Part shown: piece by piece, positions 3,330-51,415 of the stretch
How positions within the stretch are numbered: position 1 is the first letter of the stretch
How the letters are laid out: every line of letters begins with the position of its first letter
Origin: Chrysomallon squamiferum
Taxonomy: Eukaryota > Animalia > Mollusca
Direction: 5' to 3'
DNA: 64,000 nt
NCBI GenBank assembly: GCA_012295275.1
Contig: CM022670.1
Location: 11,966,001-12,030,000, forward strand
Position numbers and translations under genes: made by a program
The notes under the pieces: generated by a model
The model's database searches: none
What the model was told of the DNA's origin: nothing
The model's input: the letters and a program-made list of their open reading frames with translations, nothing else

Positions 3330-4022
3330 AAACAGCAAGAGAGAGAGTCAAAAGATGTTATTTTGTCATTTTATGTCTTTATTTTATTAATTTATTTTTA
3401 TCTTGTAGTTATTATTTTATTTTTCAGAGACATCACTTTAAACAGAACACAGAGTATATCAGAATGATCCAGTCATGACTCTGCTGTTTCCCAGTTGAGA
3501 CAAATCAAAAGAAGACTTGGAACAAAGTAAGAGAAATCTGGTGATTGTTTGCAAGTGTCCGGAGAAAGAGAGAAATGTAAATAACACAGTGTGGACTGTG
3601 ACATCAAGATGACAGATAATCTTGGACTGTGACTTCTGGTTGACTGTGTGAGGATGGTGTAAAGTCTGGTGAAATGGAAAAATAGATTTTTAATATACAG
3701 TTATCTGAAAGGTGTCAAAGGAGTTGTTAGATAAGCATGTTCAGATATATTGTGTAAAAATATTAAATCTATTGATACTATTCACATATAATGTGAACAT
3801 ATAAGAAGCTTCAGGCAGCTATTCAGGTCAGCTAGAAGATATAAAAAAAAAAGAAATAAAAAAAATATTGAGATATATTATGTAGCTGCTGCCTGTGCCA
3901 TTTTGTTTTGATAGTTTAACAAGTGATTGTTATAAAATGTGGGTCATTTTTCCAAGTGTCATTTGTGTTACAGTGTTATTATCTTGACACCAGAGTTTTT
4001 GTAATCCAGACTTTTACTCATC

Positions 4023-4484
4023 ATGAAACTTGTTCAGCCTCTGTTTGGAAGCAACATGACAAACATGACTTCCATGTCAGGACTGACCATGGTCAACCTA
4101 CTGGAAGTGGTCACTCCAACCACACTGGACAACTCTTCACTGCCGACAAGCAGACCTGGTAGGACGTCCCTCAACGCTCTCATGTACATCGTTGTCGTTC
4201 TTTTCTTCTACTCATTCAGCCTCATCATTCTGATGGTGAAGTACGTGAGAAGGGAGAAAGAGGAAGCCAATTTGAGACACTATTACCAGGAATTCGTGTC
4301 CCGAGAAAGATTCCGTTCAGCTCTGTTCCAGAACAAAATTTACATGGAGAGTTTATTAAGGAAACAGAAACTGTGTGAAATGCAGGAGCAGAATGGAAAC
4401 AAAATATACTGTAGTGGTAGTCTGTTGAAAGAGGACTCTGTTGTGGAAAAGCTATTGACTAACAGGAATGAAACAATTGTATGA
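4023..4484 (+). CDS. Single-pass membrane protein, KCNE/MinK-like potassium-channel auxiliary subunit candidate (153 aa)
   Basis: Intronless ORF, clearly more GC-rich than its flanks. No signal peptide; sequons N11-M-T, N14-M-T, N37-S-S; one hydrophobic helix (A52-V72) followed by KYVRREKEE; pattern N..MYI..V.F........L...Y.R..K.......Y matches recalled KCNE1/KCNE3. In-frame downstream ATGs (4056, 4065, 4074, 4089) make the exact start uncertain. Coding status is well supported; family assignment is less so. Confidence 0.75.
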   Translation: MKLVQPLFGSNMTNMTSMSGLTMVNLLEVVTPTTLDNSSLPTSRPGRTSLNALMYIVVVLFFYSFSLIILMVKYVRREKEEANLRHYYQEFVSRERFRSALFQNKIYMESLLRKQKLCEMQEQNGNKIYCSGSLLKEDSVVEKLLTNRNETIV

Positions 4485-7400
4485 GAAAAATGTATAAATA
4501 ACGTGTGTAATATTGGAATCAAAAAGATTTATTTTTAAAAAAAAAGTTTAAAAATTGAAAAAAACCAAAAGAGAAAGTTTAACAGGAGAATCTGTGGCTG
4601 AAAAATTAAGTAGTTGTTTGATTCTTAGTTAATCGTTTGGAAGAAGACAGTTAATAACTTTGTTATGAAATTCTGAATTTTAAAAAAAAAAATAAAAAAA
4701 AAATGATAAAGTAAAAGTAAAAGTAAAGGCAGTTAAATGCTGGAAAAATTACTGAAACCCAAGTTTTAAGAAATGTAACTTGTAAGAAAAAAAAAAAAGA
4801 AGATTTTTATTTAAAGAAAAAGCAATTGTTTGTCATGATTACAACATAAAGTTACTGAGTTTGTGAAAAGATAAAAATGGAATCAAGCAGCATGAAGCAA
4901 ATGTTTAAGTTTTAGTACAAACAACATGAAACAGCTGCAGGAAGCTGGATTATGGATTTGAAGAGAGAGAAGTCACAGGAATACAAAATAAATTTGTTTA
5001 AAAAAAAACAGTAGTCACCTTAATAAGGTGAAAAAAGAAATTATATCTAACATTCATTTCTGTTTGAACTGAAATGTGCTAAAGGGGACAGAATAAGGAT
5101 TAGTAGATGGGAAAAAAGTTATTGAAAGTAATCAGTGATAAGAGCATCTGAAAAAAAGAATGTTATTTTCTGATGTGTAACTGAATAACTTAAAAGGTTT
5201 AACTGAACTGCTTCATTCTAAAAGCCAAAAAAAAAATTTGTAAAGAAACTGGGGATGTCAAAACATGAGTTAAAAGGCAAGCTTGTTGAACAGAGAAAAT
5301 AAAAAATAGTAAAAAAAAAAATTATTGGTTTTTATTTTCATTTTTCCTTGAAAAAGAAAAAAAAAATCTAATTCCTTTTAAAATTTATTTTTGAGAGCTT
5401 TTACATTTATTATTGTTTTGTTGATTGTCTTTTTTTTTCTTTTTTTTTTTTTTAGATATTTTAAATCTAAGAAAATCAATGGCCTTTCTAGATTTAATCA
5501 TGGTTGCTTTTTTCTGCCTACATTAATCAATTAAAAACAATAAAGGAACAATCACAAACACTGAATTAAATATAACCACTTTCTGATTTAACTTGTCACG
5601 AGATGAACACAACTACGCAAAAATCTTAAATCTATAAAAGCCTCAACTCATTAAAAATTAGTATCACTGGCAAAACAAAATTTATTTTATTTTATTGCCT
5701 GGTTATTTTGGTACATCATTTTCCTTGAGAAAAAAACCCAAACAAAAATACACCCCAAAAATACAATCTGTTTAGTGCATCTTTGAAGAAAATAAAAATA
5801 AAAAGCACCAAGCAATAAACATTAATGTTATCGGTTGCTGGGAAACAAACAAACATTATTATGATAAAATGATATTTTATTTTCACTACAAAGTTTTATC
5901 AGATTCTATTTTTTACACATTAATTGGGTTGTCGAGCCAGTTAATTTCCTGAACGTAAGTATTCTGATTAATAATTTGGTGAGTTAATCAGTTTCATTAA
6001 ATAACAAAGAGAACTGTTTCAGGCATTTTAGATATTCATTTCTTTCTTGTTAATTGTCTTGTCGTGGCTGACTGAATGAATGATTTGTCTGCAGACAATG
6101 AAATCCTGGACTCATCAGTGCACTTAGTATCTGTTATAATACTAAGAAACAATTTTTAAATAAAAGATAACTGTCATCATCACTCTTTTTGTATGCACCT
6201 GCTCAAAAAATGTGAAAATACATGCCATTCTATCTCTTAGATAATTTTATAAGATTATGGTCGTGTATCTGAAATATATTAGCAAGTAAAAACATTTTTT
6301 TTAAAAAGAACAATTTGTGATATATATGTGTAAGAGATAAGCTGTAAATTTGAATGATGAAAAATGTTAAAGACAGTTTGAAATGTAAGTAAATTTATAT
6401 TAAAAAATGTAAGAAAAACAGTTTGTGCAAAGTACAAGGCAGTAATTTTGCATGAATTTTTAAGAATGTTCAGGTATTTGTGTGAAATGTGAACTGTAAA
6501 TCTGTATGAAACCTCTCTTTAATTCCAGCTGAAAGATATATCGAAAACTTTTGTTTAGAAAGATAAGACAAAATTTGCTGTTCCAATTCAGTTCTCACTA
6601 AGATTTTTAAGTTTTCCAAATAAAAACCATTAACCATTGTGTATTATCCAGAAAGTAAAAAACCCAATAATTTAATAACATAGATTTTATATTTTCTACT
6701 ATCTCTGGATGTACATGTTGTCTTACTATTCTTATAAACACACAAATCAGGAGATAAAGAAATCTTATTTTCTAGACAGCTTAATCAAGATCTAAACGGA
6801 GAACTAATGTCTGGAAATACTCTTTAATAAAGGAAAATTAGTTTTAGTTCCAAAACTTTCACATCCATCAGTTTTTCATCAAACAACGAATCCTTGTTTA
6901 AAAAAATAAAACGTTCTGGTTTAGTCGAGCTAATGGTGTTGTAAGCAGTGTTTGTAGACAGATTAATGTTTTCTTTTAGGGTTCAATTGGCCAATTTGAA
7001 ATGTTAATTACAAATCAATACAATGCTGCAGACTATTTCTGTGAACTGGCAGTTCAGCTCTTCGTATGCAGCACCCATCAAAATTCTGTATTAAATCCCA
7101 TGTTTATTAACACTGTCCATTCTACAGGAACACAGAATTACCTTCTGTTAATTTAAAAGAAGAGAAATAACAATCTTTTAACCTTTTGAACCAGTTTAAC
7201 ATTCGTCTTAACTCATGGTTTTTAATTTATTTTTAAATCACATTACAATAAGAGAACAAAACATTTGTGTACATTTTAACTTGTGAAATCATTTAAAATC
7301 TAGGATCTGGAAACAAAATTTAGTAGATACAATTTAAATTAAATTTTGTTTCTCTTTCTGTAAATTAAATCAACAGGTGTCAGGTGCTAGATAAATATAC

Positions 7401-13300: not shown

Positions 13301-16300
13301 GGTGTAGTTGTAAAAACAATTATGTTAATGATCTATAGTTGTCCAACCTAGATGTAATAAAACAATCTCATGATAAAAAACGTGTGAAAAGTAAAATTTG
13401 TAAGAATGATATGATCTGAATGTTAATGGACAGTTTCGTCAATTTAAGATTAGCATCTGTTTTTGTTTGTTAGTTTGGTCTTGTCAAAGAAGTTACGAAC
13501 AATTATATTAAAACTGAAATAAGAATGATAGCATGAAATTATCAGACTATAGTGCATACATATTTTGAAATAACACCCTGCCTTAGCTAGATATGAGAAA
13601 TACATTAAAACCACCTACATGTACAGTGTATGTATACACACACACGTACATACATATACATATTTAATGGTATTTTCTTTATCATTCTTCAAGTACAGCT
13701 AGTTAATAAATCTAGGCCTTTATTTCTATAAAATGTAAATGCTTTGCCTGTCTGCACAAACTGGCATCAACAGATAATTCAGGTAACACAGATGTGAACA
13801 CTCCACTTTCCATAATTTTTCCAAAACAAAAATATGAGATTTCCAAAACTGAGATTTCACTGTGAAAATCTGAGAAAGCAGAAACAAAGACCTTTTCACT
13901 GTAAATGAAAATAACTTGGTCTTGATTGTCTATACCTGCTTTATCAACTGTAATGGAGACAATAAATGTTTTATTTTTTCTACAATGTAAATTAGAACCT
14001 TTCTGAAATGACAACTTTAAACAAAACTTTTCCACACTAATAGATGAAACACCCAATACTGAAACAAACAAATAAATATGTCTTAAAATATCAGTTTAAT
14101 CTTATGAAGGTAAGAATGACCCAATTCTGTGAGACTATGCCTAGCTGCTTTGGGTCATTTAATCTTAAGAAAATAATTACATGCATTTCTTTTACCCTCA
14201 AACCTAAATAAATGCAAAATCTAGAGAAATTAACTGTTTTATTCCTCAACTCACTGCTCTAAACATTAGCACATTCATCTGCATTGCTTTTGCAATGATA
14301 AAAAATATTTCTTAATACCAATTTACATATATATTTTTTTTAATGAAATGATCTTTTAAAATCTAAACCAGCAATTAAACACTATGGAATTAACTCTAAA
14401 CAATATGTACATAAGCACATATAAACAAGTAATTTTTCAAAAAAAAAACACTAGTCCTTCCCCAAAAGGCTATAATATTTGGTCACTTTAGCAATGTATC
14501 TTGCCACTGAATTCAGTGATTGCAGTATATAAAATATATCCTCAGCTTTTCAGATCTACTACAGGAATGAAACATGAAGCATGTTAAATCATTACTAATA
14601 GTAACAGTAGGATATTTTTGTTTCCTGGATTACCGGAGAGACATGTTTTCAAAATGTTACATCTCTTACGCTTCTTTCTTGGTTTTGAAGATTTCTGCTG
14701 ACTGAGTTTTTTGCCCGACGCTCGAGGACACATAAGAAAATCCATTATCCGCTGAATGATGGCCTCTTTTGTTCCTGATCTTTCCACATTCAGAACCTTG
14801 CAAATGTCTTTCAAAACTGGTGTGAACATCCTGAAATTAAAGTTTTTAGGTTCAATGACACAAGTAAGGTTGACTTTCAATCAATGGCTATAAAATGTTA
14901 AAACATTTTGTATCAATCCCAGTATATATTTTAAAATAGAAAAACAGCTTTCGTTTTTTTTTCTTTGACAGCAAAGGATATATGTGATTTCCCACATAAA
15001 TAAACAGTTATGGTTTTGACAGAAAATAGGGTGCATAAAAGATGACAGATGATACAACTCAAACAAAAAGTGTTGTAACTAATTAATGGACTATGCTTCT
15101 AATAATCCTATTATAAATAAATAAAATCTGAAAAATCAATTGATAGTAAATTAACACCGAATGATTATCAAAACATAATAATAAATAAACATTAAAAAAT
15201 AAAATATTTATCTGTCTATATATATATATATACATAGAGAGAGAGAGTTGGGGAGAGAGAGAGAGAGAGAGAAGGAGGGAGAGAGACACTTGACATACTT
15301 ATTCATAACATCTATTTTCTTCTGATATTCTTTATCTTTTTTATCAAATGCAAACCCAGAAAACTGACGGATATTTTTCTTAGCTTGTGTTGCCTGCAAC
15401 AATAAAAATACAGTAAATCATTAAGACATTTTAACAAGAAACCAATAATTATTAATTTTAAGGTTTTTAATGTTAATTTTTAACATCTTGACATTAAAGA
15501 TCATGTTATTTTGACAACAGTAATTTTCTAAATTTATTTCTATGACAAATAATTACAGTACTGTAATTGGCAAATATAAGAAAAAATATGAGTGAATTAA
15601 CTGCAATCAATAAAAGATTTATTTGTTTATTTTCAGTTAAGGTTAAACATGCATTATCTCAATTTCTTTGACTTCAATTATTTCAAATTTTTAAAAACAA
15701 TCACAACACATCTAAATATAAAAATCCCCAGTTATACACATAGCCAATATAGCATATTTACAATTTTAATCTTGAAAGAGTGTTTGTAGACTGAAGAATC
15801 AGAAAGAGAACTTATATTCTCTCTGCTGCCTTAAAAGTTTTCAGAAAAGGGATCGCTGATCTGTAATTAATTTAGATTTACTTACAACTCCTGTAACACC
15901 AAAAAGAACTCTGTGTAAAGATTTCAAATCACTGCCCCGATGTCTGTTCAATTCCATCTCAACTGAAAAACAACAAATAAATGGTTTTTTTTTTAATCAA
16001 ACATAATATATATTTCAAATGCAATTTTTGACTAAACACACTTTAACTGCTGCAGTCTGACTTACTGTGATCCGAACATAAAAGTTTAAAATTTTAGAAT
16101 GTTCTTAAACTCACTAGCTGGACATTCTCCAAGTCTGTCTCCAGAACCTTCTGGTATTTCCAGTGGTTTCTTTTCTGGTGGTGTAAATGTAGATGACATG
16201 GCCAGTCGTTCAACCTTCTTCCTCTCTCTTTTCCCTGACTCGAGTATCGGCGTCTTTTCCACTGATCCTACTGAGTAAACCACCACAAGAATTAACAATC

Positions 16301-18587
16301 AAGAATATTGTGTAACACATCATTTTGTTATTTTTTTTGTTTTTTAAAAGGATGTGACAAACAAACAAAATATGTTTTTTGGTAATAATTTCCCCTGAAA
16401 TTTCAGTAATCAATTTTTAATTTGGTATCCATAATACAGCATAAAAAAATAATCATAAAAAAAAAAAAATATGCATATTTACCTTTTCAATGCTTTCTTT
16501 CTTATAATATATATAGTTTTCACTGAATTATCAGTAATACATGTTTTACTTATTTTTATTCCATGGAAAAAAGTTCTTATTCATGTGTGATATAAAAGTA
16601 ATAATAATAATAATATTGAAATTAAAAAGGGAGACAACTCTCAGAAACAAATCTTCAACATTCACTAAAGGCAATTTGAAAACAACATAAATAAACATTT
16701 AATGATATCAACACAAAAAGGCATCAGATATTAACATTAATATTACTCTGTTCAACAATTTAACTTACATGAATCTTCATCACCTTCGTTTACTTCTTCA
16801 TAGTAATATGTTGGTGCCCGTTTCTTTTTCTTTCTGCCTTGTTTCGGTTTTGGAGTGGAGTCACCATCACCATCTACCTCAGATTTCTCTGACTTGCTCT
16901 GGTCAAGATCAGCTTCCTTCTCCTCTTTGTTGGAAATTTCCTCCATCGACACATCTTTTCCAGAAGATGCCTCACTCTCATTCTTGTCTTCCTGACTTTC
17001 CAACACTTTCACATCCTCCAGTTTGGGAGAGGATTCTTTTTCTGTGTTTTTTTCTTTGTTTTCCTGAGGTAATTCCTCAACTTTGGGTTTTGACGATTCA
17101 TCCTCAGATAAATTGTTTTCTTTTATTTCATTTTCTTTCATATCCTCATGTCCATTTTCTGTTCTCACTTCCTCTGCAAGTTCAACAGGTTTTTTTGCAG
17201 GAACATTCATCGAATTTTCTTCCGGTTTTTTATCTTCAGTCTTTTGCTCCTTAAAATAAAATTTTAAAAATAACATCCCATCAATTTCAAAATTTCATTC
17301 TAATGAAAGATTCCTTTCACTGTTCTTATTTTTTAATTAATATCATAAAATACTATATAAATGAAAACATATTGCTAGAATAAGACACAAGTTATAAATC
17401 AGATTAAGGTATTAGTTTTTACACCAGTAAAAAATAATAAACAATGCCTTATTAGCGAAGGGCTATAACTCTTGTCTAAAAATTTAAAACTGTATTCTGA
17501 ATTTATATATTTCAGATAATAAACTTCAGAAAGCTGTAATACTCTAAACAGTATTTAGTTATATATCAATTATGAATTCCATACAACTTTAACTTTATCT
17601 GTATGGTTATCTATCAAATTCCATATCAGACTGCTATAAAAAAAATTCTCATAATTAAACAAAAAAAGGAACAACATAGAAGCAGATTGTATAAATTTGT
17701 ATTATTTAAAGTGTTTAGTCATTCTGCCCTCCCCAAAATGTGATATAATTCACTAACAGTATTGCTTTAGTGTTATAGTTAGACATTTATACAATTATAG
17801 GGATGAATACTATATCAATATTGATACAGTATTTTTAATATCAAATTTACTTTTTTTTTTTTATTTGTTTATATATTAATGTAATAATTAAATTTCAATA
17901 TATTCTGCAACAGAAAAATTGAGTAAACCACTTATTCAATCAATTGAATTATTGGCAATACTTTACATTCTATAATATTCCGAAGGTAGGTTAGACAACT
18001 CTATCTGAATGATGTAAATCAGTTTGATGCATTTAAATACAAATATTTGTGGGCATATCAAGCATTAATTTTAACTTTAACGGATTTAGTTGTTTTGCAC
18101 TTTCAAACGATACTTATTAGTTCGAGAACCTTTCATCTATTCCTTTGTTGACATTTTAAAAGTAATAATAAAGGTAAGTGGATTCTGTACCAGTCAAGCG
18201 CGCTTAAATTCAAATACAGTAGCAGAAATCATTGAAGATCGACACATTTCTCAATGCAGATAACATATTTGTAACAATTGTCAAAACAATATTTCGGTTA
18301 AACGCAGTATTATATTTGGCAACTAGAATTATATATATACAGGTGTAAAAACAATAACTGCACTAACAAACTGGACACCATGATTACTGTTACGCTTCGT
18401 TTTAAAATCCATTATAAAAGCTAAGAGTATCTAACAAAAATCATGTATAAATAACTAGAGCATAATGGAAATAATTATTCGTTCACAATAAAATGTGCAA
18501 TAAATAAATATAAGCTTTCGAATCTAAAACAAGATCAATCAATACCCCCGATTGCGGAGTAGCACCGGTATCATCTCCTTCTGACAT
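10337..18587 (-). CDS. DEK: DEK chromatin protein (pseudo-SAP/SAP plus DEK-C domain), about 551 aa, 12 coding exons
   Basis: Phase-consistent GT-AG exons: 18587-18546, 17249-16769, 16270-16115, 15962-15886, 15393-15299, 14830-14670 (alternative donor gives end 14661), 13087-12873, 12555-12357, 11497-11433, 11245-11162, 10679-10611, 10348-10337. Motifs GKRERKKVERL, LKSLHRVLF, KKNIRQFSGF, SAP LKDICKVLNVERSGTKEAIIQRIMDFL, DDSSEEDEPLVKK and DEK-C DELKDLIKKILDGADLEQVTMKTVVKQVYGKYPDFDLTDRKEFIKNTVKQIIS. Confidence 0.95.
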
Positions 18588-23218: not shown

Positions 23219-24720
23219 TTTTTTATTTGGTTTGTTCTTTATTTAATATTAAATGTTTTTTAATTTACATGCTGAAATTTGTGAATATTCACTTATTTAA
23301 TATCATTTATTTACTTATTTAGTGTTTTATTAACTATGTGTTCATACATGCACTTTGAATATGGAATAACCAGAATAGTTTCAGTATATTAATGATGCTA
23401 AATTATTACTGTTATTGTTATTGTTATTGTTATTGTTATTGTTAATATTATTAGTATTAGTATTATTTATTTTAACTGTAATTTTCACTTTAAAATGTGT
23501 TACGTAACTCAGAGTTTAAAACTGGGGTTTAGATATTTCAATGTGTATTGTTATGTTACAGTGTGGACTTCGGTTCTGTTCAGTATGTAAATCCAAATGG
23601 CATGCTGCCAAAAGCTGTGATGAAGTTATGATTTCAGGACGACATGAAGACTTAGGGTAAGACTGAACATAACTCCTTAACTCTGAATTTAAATATAGCA
23701 GCATTTTAATCCAGACATATACACACAAACTCAAAGAAAAAAAGAAAAAAGAAAATATTTAAAATTATATTCAGGATATTATATAGTGTTTTCATGTGAT
23801 AAAGTATGACTCTATAGGGGTACTGGTTGTTTTTAATGCATCAATTAAAATTACAAACATTTGACACACAGCAACAGAGGACAGAAAATATAATTTTTGT
23901 AGTTTATAATATAAGCACAACAAAAGTATACTGTTACTGAAAGTGGGTTTATTATTTTTGTTTGTGCAGCATTCCATTTAGCAGTGCAGAGGACGCAAGA
24001 ATCAAGCGGTGTCCTGTCTGCCACGTGCCCATTGAAAGGAATGACGGCTGCGCGCAGATGATGTGCAAGCGATGTAAACACGTTTTCTGTTGGTACTGCC
24101 TTGCCTCTCTTGATGTGAGTAAATACGATTTACAGGTGTTCGTGTTAAAGTGAATTGCTGCGATGTCAGCATTTATTAATATAATTTCATTAACAAACTT
24201 TACTTATAATAAGTTAAATGAAAATAAACGTATATTTAATTGTTCAAATAAGTAATTTTATTATTATTATTATTATGTTTTTTTTTTAATGAAGCATTAT
24301 GCTCCAGATATGTGTTTTCTCAAATGGTTATTTTAAATATTTTTGACTTTATCTACCATTTACACCTACAAGGTGTTTATTTAAATTGAATTATTTTCTG
24401 TCAGTAATTACTAATCTAATTTCAGGAATTAACTTTACTCATTACAAGTTAAAATAATATAAACCTTTATATTTAATTGTTCAATGTAAATAATGGTTCT
24501 TTTTTCTTCTATAAATCCTTATGCTCAAGATATGTATTTTCTTGAAATTTCCACTAGTATTTGCATCTAAAACAAGCTTAGTGGCCTCTGTTACAATACT
24601 GTTACAATAAACTTATTTGTAAAACACTTGGTATTGTCAAAACATATTGGCATTTTCATAACATGGTTTTGTTTTCAAATTCATCTTATTTTGCAATTAA
24701 ACATTTATTTACTGGAATTA

Positions 24721-33331: not shown

Positions 33332-36300
33332 TTAGAAGTCTGCGTCCAGTGTGAATGTGTGCTTCTCTGCCGACTGGCCAGACATCACACCCATGCGTTG
33401 ATATTCACCAACACGTTTTTCAAAAAAGTTTGTTTTACCCTCCAGTGAAATCTGCTCCATGAAGTCGAATGGATTTTCTGACTTGTAAACCTGAAATGTA
33501 ACAATGTTTTGCAGAATGAAATATTTTGACATCATTATGGATACAGGGTGACAAGCAGTGACTATATTAATTAAATAATAGTGTTTAAAAGTAGATAAAA
33601 AAAAAAAAAAAAAAAAAACATTTTATGCACATTTCAAATTTTACCTAAATTTTTCTGTTTTATTCCATCTGATGAATTTTAAGACCCCACAGGTTGTAAA
33701 TAATTTTGTTATTATATTTCTACTACACAATAATTAGATGGAAAACACAAAAAGATCAATTCTTTTATTAGTGCCAATACAAAAAGGACGAGTTCTGTAC
33801 CTTTTCACAGTTCAGTTCTACAAGCAGCCTGTCTGCGACAAACTCAATGTACTGTTTCATCAGAGAACAGTTCATTCCTATCAGACTGACTGGGAGGGCT
33901 GCTGTCAGAAAGTCCTGCTCTATCGACACTGCGTCTGTGATGATTTCCTTTATCCTTTCTTCAGACGGCTTGTTCACCAAGTGACTGAACATCAGACAGG
34001 CAAAATCACAGTGCAGTCCCTGGAAAATAGTTTATTAGTTTTGTCATACTTTTGTCATCATTGGTTATTGAAAAATGTCTGTTCATATCTTAAAAATCCA
34101 AAGAGGTTGAACATAATACAATCCTTTTCAACAGTAATATGCATATAAATGTTTTATACTTAGTAGTTAATGGAACAATCACTGGCAAATAAAGAAAATG
34201 AAACATTACAAATGCTTTATCTTTCAAAATTGTCATGATTTAATGTCAACTTACAAGAACATTAAGAATTCACTCAGTAATGTTCTGAACAATACATTTT
34301 ATAAATTTATCTGTTAACATCCAAGCCAAACAAAAAATAAATTACAGAATACAACTGCTGGTAAATTATTCAAAATGTTAAATGATATTTCAGTTAAAAA
34401 TTTACTAATAATAAATAAAAGGAATGAAAGATAAATACCTCATCTCTGCTTATGAGTTCATTGCTGAAAGTCAGACCAGGCATTATTCCTCTTTTCTTCA
34501 GCCAGAAAATAGCTGCAAACGACCCAGAAAAGAAAATTCCTTCCACTGCAGCGAATGCTACAACTCTTTCTCCATAAGTTGCCAAGTCATCGTTCATCCA
34601 CTTCATGGCCCAGTCAGCCTTCGCCTTCACACAGGGCATCGTTTCCACAGCATTGAATAAAAACTGCCTGCAAAATACATTAAAAAATAATAATTGGCAC
34701 TAAATTGAAAATGTCAGAACAAGTTTTGTTTCTTATATATAGAAAATGTCCATTATTCTACTGCAGTGAATAAAAAATGCCTGAAAATGTTAAAGAAACC
34801 AGGTTTAAAAAAATAAATTAAACAATTTTAAAGTAATCATTAAATAATTAGTATTAATTTAAAAATGACAGAACAAATGTTTTTTTTTATTGATGTCTAG
34901 ATGCAGAACACAGGCATTATCAACATTTGGTAAACCAAAATTACATAGTACAGAGGAAACATGCCAATTGATTTCCTTTAAATCATGCATACCTGTTATA
35001 GACCAGCAATAAGAAGACATTAAATTAAAATAGTTGAAATAACGTACCTCTGTTTAGGTTCTTTGACATACGTGTCTATCAGCAGACTGTACATTTCACT
35101 GTGTATGTTCTCCATGGCAATTTGGAAACCATAGAAACACCTGGCTTCTGTCACCTGAACTTCCTGCATGAATCTTTCAACCTGTACAAATTATAAGTAT
35201 TAGAATAAAATATTTTGACAAAGTGTGTATGGACAACAGCTGTTAAGAAAACTGTAGCCTGTTTAAATATATTTGTATAACAGTGGTTATTTTCAAACAC
35301 TTCATTTCCAATATAGTGACTCACGATTATTAATTTCACAATCATCAACCTGATAAATCATTTTAAACAGGCAAAATTCCATTTACATTAATTACACTCA
35401 CCAAATTTTCGTTAACAATGCCATCACTAGCGGCAAAAAATGCAAGAACATGCGAGATGAAATGTTTCTCGTTATCTTTCAACTGTTCCCAGTGTTGGAT
35501 GTCATGTGTCAAGTCAACTTCCTCCACTGTCCAAAACGAGGCTTCGGCTTTTTTGTACATTCGCCAGATGTCATGGTATTCAATGGGGAACATGACAAAA
35601 CGATTTGGATTGTCCTTCAGCAATGGCTCATCTTTGACTTTTTTGTTAGTTTCCCTTGTTTTTTTCATAACTGCTTTAACCTTCAAGAAAATAAAAATTA
35701 AAAAAATATATAATAAAATGTCTTAAAGCCATACCTATTAGAAATATTTACAATTTGTTTGAATTTAGACTGATGAAACATGTCAGTGGTCAACACAGAA
35801 TTCTTTACCCATCTGGTAATTTTGAAAGCTAACCACCATTTTGGATGCTTCCTTTTTGTTTTCCTTTCAAAGCTCCTCAGCAAAATTTTGAAAATTTACT
35901 TTATAAAAACAATTTAATAGGTGACACTGACGTGTACAAAAATAGCTTTAGCTTATATTAAATAGATTCTGAAATGTTACCTATCTTTAGCATATTTTAA
36001 TTTTGTAATAAAGCAATATATTTATTATAAACCTTCATTTTTAAAGAGGAATACATAAAAAATTAAAGAAGTACGTATCATTCAGTATTCAAATACTTTG
36101 CCTTTATTTTGTTTTTAAATAACTAATAATGCATCTTGGAAGACAAAAGCTACTCTAAGTTATGACTTCAATATTTAAAGCTGTTTTTTTTTTTTTTTTT
36201 TTTTTTAAATTTCATTTACCAAAATATCTTATCTGGAATCAGATTAAGATACAAATTTTATCTCCTTTATTTACTTTATTATTAAATTTAAAAACAGACA

Positions 36301-50236: not shown

Positions 50237-51415
50237 ATGAAATTTTCTCTTAATGACAATGAAGCGGATTCCAGAAGACGGGCTCAGAGTGCAAGGTCAG
50301 GAAGAGGTGGAGGTTTGACTCAGCGAAACAAGCAGTTCAGAGGTAAATCTGCTCCCTTTCATTCACATCCCTTCCAGCCGGCGAAAAAGACGACCATGCC
50401 CACGACGTCTTACAAAAAACCCGTCACCGTCATCAAAGAGAAAGACCAAGGCATCATCGTCGTTACAGATCACGGAGACCTCAACGGCAACAACCGGCTA
50501 CGGTTAACATCTGAAAGCAGCTCCGTGTCTGTTAAATGCAAAGCATCTTCAGCGGAGTCCAAAAATACTTTATCACCTTCTGCCGCGCTGACCAGACCGT
50601 GTGATGGTCAAGCCAAGAAATCTTCACCTGTGGTCAGACGGTCTCCCAAAGAAGTGAGAAAACGATCCGAGAGCGTGACGTCTGACTCTATAGAATGCTC
50701 AAAGACCGCGGCTCAGAAGTCGACCGCGTGGGATGCGTTCGACGAGCATGTTAAGAACATTAACGATTCTTCGGACTACTACACGAAACAGCAGAAGATT
50801 TCATTCAAGGCCAGCGACACGTTTCAGAAAACCATGCTAGACCTGTACGGCAAACCCGAGTACGGCAAGACCAAAGGGCTGTCCAAATTCCGTGCCAAAG
50901 TGGGCACCATAACGTCACTGGCGTATCGTTTTTCCAAGGCGTGCAACAGGAACGCGGAGAACGGCGATTCCGAAGAACAGAGCGACTGCGAGACTCCCGA
51001 CTTGAAAACGGTAGAGAATGCTCGGAGAGGATGGAGGATTCTGAGGCGGTACGTCCAGGATCAGATCGCGCAAAAGAAAGGCAGCGCCGCCTCACTGAAC
51101 TGGTCAGTGTTGCAGCAGACGATGCGCGGGATGAGCGACATGGAGAAAACAAGGATTGATCTTTACAAACGCTATGGAATCATTCCCACGGTGAACAGTG
51201 ACGGGACGGTAGTGCAAGAAAACACGATGCTAAGCGAACGCGCGCGTGCTCAGTTGCTGAACGCGTCGAAAAACAGCGTGCTGTCCGGTCCTGTTCCTCT
51301 GCGTCGTGTTCACTCGCACGGACCGCCATCTTGGAATTTAAGAAGCAGTTACCAAAACGTTTCGAAAACAGAATCATATAAAAAAAGACGACCGAAAAGT
51401 TCGCAAAATCCATAA
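50237..51415 (+). CDS. Uncharacterised basic Ser/Arg/Lys-rich protein (392 aa), intronless CDS
   Basis: 1.18-kb open frame with GC and CpG content far above the flanks and non-repetitive amino-acid sequence; first ATG at 50237 (ORF track starts at GTG 50222); AATAAA at about 51636 and 51775. No family recognised. Confidence 0.85.
   Translation: MKFSLNDNEADSRRRAQSARSGRGGGLTQRNKQFRGKSAPFHSHPFQPAKKTTMPTTSYKKPVTVIKEKDQGIIVVTDHGDLNGNNRLRLTSESSSVSVKCKASSAESKNTLSPSAALTRPCDGQAKKSSPVVRRSPKEVRKRSESVTSDSIECSKTAAQKSTAWDAFDEHVKNINDSSDYYTKQQKISFKASDTFQKTMLDLYGKPEYGKTKGLSKFRAKVGTITSLAYRFSKACNRNAENGDSEEQSDCETPDLKTVENARRGWRILRRYVQDQIAQKKGSAASLNWSVLQQTMRGMSDMEKTRIDLYKRYGIIPTVNSDGTVVQENTMLSERARAQLLNASKNSVLSGPVPLRRVHSHGPPSWNLRSSYQNVSKTESYKKRRPKSSQNP

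Follow-up and report, generated by a model that had tools for sequence, protein, structure and literature searches.

The analysed window is a stretch of 64,000 nucleotides from the genome of the mollusc Chrysomallon squamiferum (assembly GCA_012295275.1, contig CM022670.1, positions 11,966,001 to 12,030,000), AT-rich animal DNA (28.5% GC) in which genes are split by introns. Near its start, an uninterrupted open reading frame (ORF) on the forward strand, 4023-4484, encodes a protein of 153 residues (P0001) with one membrane helix, which we read as a likely homologue of the KCNE subunits of potassium channels. A preliminary description, made from the sequence alone, had reported an intronless frame of this position, strand and length, and the ORF list and the translation agree with it. 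Upstream of the ATG the frame is terminated by an in-frame TAA at 4002-4004. The GC content of the ORF is 43% (55% at third codon positions, GC3), and a relative, P0236, is 67% identical to the window protein over the full length, with the first methionine and the C-terminal motif retained. Given this raised GC and GC3, this identity and the RNA cover described below, the ORF is more than a chance frame.

Words of the stretch were present in five public runs from two studies, and the contigs of four runs were compared with positions 3335-4670. In three RNA runs, which belong to a single study, contigs covered the entire ORF with no differences listed inside it; the preliminary description had named the lack of a covering transcript as grounds for rejection, and such transcripts exist. 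The fourth run (X5, from the second study) matched short AT-rich pieces only and left the ORF uncovered, and it is not counted as support. These data are contigs, from which expression level and transcript ends are not readable, and it is the junctions that give the evidence for RNA. In the three RNA runs, cover was zero across 3335-3424 and set in at 3426/3427, where an AG follows a pyrimidine tract. Two RNA contigs extend upstream of this point with differing letters and neither upstream piece was found within the 64-kb window, which suggests two alternative upstream exons located outside it. In addition, one contig (depth 5, one run) connects 3526 to 3974, and the other contigs run through 3527-3973. 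The coding sequence is thus carried by one exon behind upstream exons, with a splice acceptor at 3426-3427 and an intron in the 5' untranslated region (UTR). A single-exon coding sequence behind non-coding exons is typical of KCNE genes. All together, these data show that ORF 4023-4484 is a real, transcribed and spliced gene. We also observed that the 5' UTR contains short upstream ATG frames in its spliced form, next to the 447-nucleotide intron that is either retained or removed; control of translation through these elements is possible.

The protein had been described as having no signal peptide, three N-terminal N-glycosylation sequons, a single transmembrane helix and a basic juxtamembrane segment, and each of these features was recovered. 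There is one hydrophobic segment, with a Kyte-Doolittle peak of 2.6 over 19 residues starting at residue 52. For hydropathy windows that begin within the first 40 residues the maximum is 0.76, so that no signal-peptide core is apparent, as assessed through hydropathy alone. The three sequons are N11, N14 and N37, and a fourth one, unlisted in that description, lies in the tail at N149. The basic segment KYVRREKEE directly follows the hydrophobic segment. AlphaFold2, run with an alignment of 141 family sequences (see below), predicted a helix over residues 47-97, with predicted local distance difference test (pLDDT) values of 96-98 over residues 51-90, a weaker helix over residues 100-124 and disorder in the remainder, residues 1-46 showing a pLDDT of 55-60 and no secondary structure. 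Comparison of this model with the PDB by Foldseek gave no match at E<=10, which is unsurprising for a bare helix. The length of the protein, its single helix and its lack of a signal-peptide core all fit KCNE proteins. Across the family, at least one N-terminal sequon was found in 134 of the 144 proteins with a locatable helix (8 of 152 proteins were not scored), and the sequon rate per 100 residues was 4.5 before the helix and 0.6 after it. Because sequons cluster before the helix and basic residues come after it, the protein is probably anchored with its N-terminus outside and its C-terminus in the cytosol, again as in KCNE proteins.

An exhaustive search of 1.84 billion representative sequences returned 210 relatives at E<=1e-3, 80 of them at E<=1e-10, and 150 of the 210 were listed. 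From 152 proteins, 141 were aligned; four very long and seven N-terminally cut sequences were left out. Y55 and Y63 are invariant across the 141 sequences and A52, I56 and V59 are conserved in at least 96%, while the juxtamembrane segment is marked by K73 (90%), Y74 (99%), E78 (91%), E90 (86%) and R94 (93%). The conserved helix residues recur every three to four positions, a spacing that would mark a binding face. The members that carry names in a profile search come from spiders, a scorpion, ticks, decapods, bivalves and gastropods; they are annotated as uncharacterised, as hypothetical or under mistaken names. The family is nevertheless already partly visible, since 6 of the 88 members from this search bear a precomputed, automatic PF02060 tag, none with a KCNE name. 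When 30 proteins were looked up, a species could be assigned to seven clusters: Patella, Pomacea, Babylonia, the hemichordate Glandiceps, Branchiostoma, Tachypleus and Priapulus. With the family core profile the last four reached 79-82 bits, and 120 KCNQ proteins at most 2.5 bits. Judged by these matches, the family spans molluscs, chelicerates, decapods, a priapulid, a hemichordate (acorn worm) and amphioxus. No insect, nematode, tunicate, cnidarian or vertebrate was found among the named members, but most members are unnamed, so absence from these groups is not shown. The preliminary description had implied a lone unannotated protostome gene; its occurrence in protostomes stands, and its scope was too small, as the family is also present in invertebrate deuterostomes.

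At least three paralogues were found in Patella caerulea. The window holds no second member: a single one of its 1527 frames was significant against the family profile. In a quick and poorly resolved tree restricted to the invertebrate family (232 rows, 64 columns), the window protein grouped with named gastropod members with a support of 93. The matches of a genome index search, spread over 20 genomes, were all A-rich and of low complexity, and a metagenome scan for the relatives' DNA gave 211 pattern matches, none of which was confirmed. The C-termini of the family frequently share a pattern: S/T-x-V/I/L ends 82 of the 152 proteins (background 2.6%), E-S/T-x-V/I/L ends 54 of the 152 (background 0.11%), and in a larger set the former pattern is found in 140 of 235. 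This pattern, which went unmentioned in the preliminary description, is that of a class I PDZ ligand.

Two subgroups were observed besides. P0009, P0013, P0014 and P0048 stand near the window protein and share a Cys-containing C-terminal extension, reaching 600-870 residues, far above the KCNE sizes given in the available part of PMC13054283. In an unnamed subgroup (P0092, P0100, P0101, P0113, P0118-P0120, P0124, P0128, P0131 and P0134), the helix starts with N-A-Y-M/L-Y-I-L-F-V, much nearer to KCNE3 than the helix start of the window protein.

The top Pfam match of the window protein was ISK_Channel (PF02060), at E = 3.1e-4. Of the 15 Pfam families hit by the aligned proteins, ISK_Channel stood first with matches in 90 of 141 members at E<=0.01; the second had 4 of 141. 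In a set of 30 made up of the window protein and the 29 relatives listed nearest to it, ISK_Channel matched 29 at E<=0.02 and 7 reached the curated cut-off; in a partly hand-picked set of 70, 65 matched at E<=0.02 and 19 reached the cut-off; and 9 of 12 more distant members matched at E<=0.1. By comparison, ISK_Channel matched 0 of 25 control frames at E<=0.1; these frames, drawn from the window and unrelated loci, combine a hydrophobic stretch with a basic tail. The Pfam seed may already hold invertebrate sequences, and we therefore added a search of the 177,635 PDB sequences as a check independent of it. When six such searches were pooled, KCNE1-3 filled 45 of 46 rows: 8 of 9 with the window protein as query, 6 of 6 with the unselected profile of 141 sequences, 9 of 9 with P0092 (best E = 0.018), 5 of 5 with P0004, which is 46% identical to the window protein (human KCNE1, E = 5.6e-6, or about 8e-4 when corrected as the best of 141), 8 of 8 with a selected sub-profile (KCNE3, E = 2.4e-5; KCNE1, E = 1.7e-3) and 9 of 9 with a second sub-profile (best E = 1.1e-3). 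The HMMER bias term was 0.0-0.1 in the alignments shown. The three best-ranked ESM Atlas clusters (scores 0.93-0.94), of which one is mainly molluscan, carry ISK_Channel in 25-40% of their members. At the residue level, Y55, V59, L60, F62, M71, Y74 and R76, all conserved in the family, are identical in KCNE1. The KCNE3 segment that the preliminary description had used for comparison agrees with the PDB chain, and the 11 identities listed in 41 positions are correct; the alignment, said to have no gaps, is ungapped up to the first tyrosine of the YY pair, after which HMMER introduces a gap of one residue in two of the searches. KCNE is therefore the best and nearly the only match in the profile searches, as that description had proposed, and none of them gave a better match to another single-helix family such as MRAP or SMIM.

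Several observations weigh against this assignment. The window protein scores 20.9 bits, 1.2 bits short of the curated PF02060 cut-off of 22.1, and the amphioxus member, which would be expected nearest to the vertebrates, is not matched by ISK_Channel at E<=0.1. The 45 KCNE rows of the PDB searches represent three genes only. The best E-values obtained there with the window protein (0.032) and with the unselected profile (0.031) are not significant, and the better ones are optimistic, P0004 and the sub-profiles having been picked after their KCNE-likeness was seen; the match between P0004 and KCNE1 also lies partly in the unconserved N-terminus. The matching core measures about 45 residues, half of which form the transmembrane helix, and the ESM Atlas scores fall to 0.86-0.88 when residues 40-110 are used alone. 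Finally, the juxtamembrane motif of KCNE1-3, a serine and basic residues followed by D-P and an aromatic residue, is lacking: D-P is present in 0 of 141 members and the serine after Y-x-R is missing in 140 of 141 (one member of 141 has Y/F-x-R-S), with Y-x-R and the downstream aromatic residue retained. Because the Pfam cut-off and the motif both fail, we use the label KCNE-like homologue rather than canonical KCNE. By these comparisons the link is weak for each protein but consistent and specific across the family, and common ancestry with vertebrate KCNE appears very probable.

Taking homology and function together, we propose that this one-helix protein is likely a KCNE homologue and likely a helper subunit for voltage-gated potassium (Kv) channels, with KCNQ1 as the first candidate, a reading to which we assign a probability of about 0.6. 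A role as helper of some potassium channel is a reasonably probable part of this proposal; KCNQ1 as the main partner is put forward tentatively. The helix would itself anchor the protein in the membrane, leaving the glycosylated N-terminus on the outer side and the basic segment on the inner side. A stripe formed by A52, Y55/I56, V59, F62/Y63, S66, L70 and K73/Y74 would pack against the channel in the groove between the voltage-sensor S1 helix and the pore, as for vertebrate KCNEs, and this contact would alter channel gating or surface delivery, while the C-terminal ETIV may bind a PDZ scaffold and link the complex to it. KCNE-type proteins would then descend from the bilaterian ancestor, and in Ciona they would have been lost or have diverged beyond recognition.

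Is a suitable channel available in molluscs? A search seeded from a KCNQ exon yielded an abalone protein, P0289, that matches KCNQ1 far better than KCNQ2-5 (E = 5e-207 for KCNQ1 and 1e-141 for KCNQ5), and on this similarity molluscs have a KCNQ1 orthologue. According to the available part of PMC3206303, six KCNQ1 residues are important for KCNE modulation, and the KCNQ1 of Ciona differs at four of them. P0289 retains five of the six (F123, F127, F130, G272 and V334, human numbering) and has a methionine at V324. This residue argument is weakened by insect KCNQ1s, which retain the same five residues, though no named family member is an insect; the pattern is permissive and does not discriminate. 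Complex prediction with residues 47-93 and four copies of abalone KCNQ1 S1-S6, a cross-species pair run with no alignments, gave a score of 0.00 in two runs, a result that counts neither for nor against the pairing. Lamprey KCNE0 is reported to have had weak effects when paired across species.

The KCNE likeness could instead be convergent or due to chance, these proteins forming an independent type III single-pass family, perhaps nearer to SERTM1, C10orf105 or MRAP-type proteins. The short core, the marginal E-values of unselected queries and the missed Pfam cut-off would fit this explanation, as would the SERTM1 and C10orf105 clusters in the ESM Atlas (0.84-0.87) and one member of the set of 70 that matches SRTM1 at E = 0.017. 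That member, however, scores 22.1 bits with ISK_Channel and 15.7 with SRTM1. Pfam also contains an MRAP model, and the SRTM1, DUF5527 and MRAP models matched 0 of 141 members at E<=0.01, where ISK_Channel matched 90; together with the dominance of KCNE among the PDB rows and the silence of the control frames, this makes convergence quite improbable. The idea that the ORF is non-coding (a chance frame, a pseudogene or a fragment of another gene) could appeal to RNA support that consists of contigs from one study, to the second study's run and to the lack of protein-level data, but it is largely refuted by the size of the family, the 67% full-length identity to relatives sharing the start and the C-terminal motif, the raised GC3, and the RNA contigs with their forward-strand splice junctions behind an upstream in-frame stop, and we give it hardly any weight.

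Descent from a KCNE ancestor could also be combined with a main partner other than a Kv channel (another channel, a transporter or a receptor), the protein acting as an accessory or trafficking subunit at PDZ scaffolds. The replacement of the KCNE1-3 features behind the helix (Ser, D-P), the family's own strongly conserved cytosolic segment and its C-terminal motif all point in this direction; many paralogues per mollusc, as in Patella caerulea, could mean many partners, and vertebrate KCNEs are reported to act on channels besides KCNQ1 (PMC13516689). Nevertheless, family conservation in the helix is strongest at the positions common to KCNE1 and KCNE3, the contacts of KCNE3 with KCNQ1 run along the transmembrane segment (PMC11659587, in the part available), and a KCNQ1 orthologue is present in molluscs. 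A partner outside the Kv channels thus seems unlikely to us, and the Kv helper reading is the one we retain.

Features of the KCNE-like gene and other genes of the window.
Feature	Position	Strand	Basis
Complete coding sequence, single exon, KCNE-like protein P0001	4023-4484	+	ATG 4023 to TGA 4484, 153 residues, uninterrupted
Acceptor site (pyrimidine tract, AG) of the exon bearing the coding sequence	3406-3427	+	Start of RNA cover in three runs, upstream contig pieces
5' untranslated part of the coding exon	3428-4022	+	RNA contig cover, in-frame stop 4002-4004
Alternatively removed GT..AG intron of 447 nucleotides in the 5' UTR	3527-3973	+	One contig, one run; donor and acceptor context
Residues 1-46, Ser/Thr-rich, predicted disordered, likely extracellular; sequons N11, N14, N37	4023-4160	+	Hydropathy, sequons, AlphaFold2
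Residues 52-72, single transmembrane helix	4176-4238	+	Hydropathy, alignment, AlphaFold2
Residues 73-97, conserved juxtamembrane K-Y-x-R-R-E ... Y-Y-x-E-F-V-x-R, helix predicted to continue	4239-4313	+	Alignment, AlphaFold2
C-terminal ETIV, candidate class I PDZ-binding motif	4470-4481	+	Family end-motif counts
SAP-domain exon (14587-14880) and acidic Lys/Glu-rich exon (16752-17294)	14587-17294	-	
IBR-domain exons	23520-24150	+	
Ribonucleotide reductase small chain gene, four exons	33771-35722	-	
Single-exon ORF of 392 residues, basic, Ser-rich	50237-51415	+	

Elsewhere in the window, the IBR-domain exons likely belong to an RBR-type ubiquitin ligase, and the SAP-domain and acidic exons are possibly parts of one chromatin-protein gene. 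The window has a single GC-rich block (about 42%), and the ORF of 392 residues lies in it; this ORF has no Pfam match better than E = 7.7 and is likely a real gene of unknown family. Rab20 and pax3 are the neighbours named for kcne0 and kcne6 in the literature; the SAP-domain, IBR-domain and ribonucleotide reductase genes differ from them, which carries little weight at such distance.

Canonical KCNEs are said to be absent from invertebrates in papers of 2024 and 2026, and the available part of PMC3206303 describes Ciona as lacking a KCNE-like gene; these printed statements trace to Okamura et al. 2005 or to a numbered reference. An invertebrate KCNE is not reported in the accessible portions of PMC13054283, PMC10950684, PMC11148248, PMC4640657, PMC5945843 and bioRxiv 10.1101/2025.09.21.677649. 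Our literature search, with subscription journals mostly outside its scope, found no publication describing the family, and a mention in the tables of genome papers is possible. For nematodes, invertebrate KCNE-like subunits are not a new idea (MPS-1, accessible portion of PMC4210162).

We lean towards the view that KCNE helpers are a bilaterian rather than a vertebrate invention, with an unrecognised and often multi-gene branch in molluscs, chelicerates, crustaceans, priapulids, hemichordates and amphioxus that would tune KCNQ1 and other Kv channels and couple them to PDZ scaffolds by way of the C-terminal motif. If so, work on cloned pore subunits alone would have recorded invertebrate potassium currents that lacked a native partner, and Ciona would have lost these proteins. 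Presence in protostomes and in invertebrate deuterostomes would shift the origin of KCNE to the bilaterian ancestor. The family would also provide natural variants for asking which residues determine KCNE1-like versus KCNE3-like gating, and candidates for missing modulators of the potassium currents of neurons and epithelia in molluscs and arthropods.

How does the family compare with known systems? SERTM1 (PF15872) and C10orf105/DUF5527 (PF17665) are likewise small and single-pass, and the ESM Atlas returns them as look-alikes of lower rank. C. elegans MPS-1 to MPS-4 (MiRP-like subunits of KVS-1), compared by description only, are also invertebrate single-pass proteins. They are described as potassium channel helper subunits, and MPS-1 is called a KCNE family member, in the accessible portion of PMC4210162, so that such a role exists in protostomes; PMC13516689 describes them as nematode-specific and non-canonical. 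They differ from our family in that no nematode is found among its named members and that none of the 15 Pfam families matched is MPS-named. The nearest known system is that of vertebrate KCNE1-KCNE6 and lamprey KCNE0 (PF02060; PDB 2k21, 9u7f_C, 2m0q, 6v01_C and 2ndj). The window protein has in common with it a size within 103-177 residues and a single-helix layout (both as given for KCNE in the available part of PMC13054283), N-terminal sequons, A/S-x-x-Y-I/V at the start of the helix, Y-x-R/K at its end and a pair of aromatic residues some 13 positions downstream. In contrast, the invertebrate family has features of its own: the invariant second helix tyrosine (Y63), the acidic E-x-E-E stretch (R-R-E-x-E-E), the segment Y-Y-x-E-F-V-x-R, the frequent C-terminal S/T-x-V/I/L and a distribution across invertebrate bilaterians.
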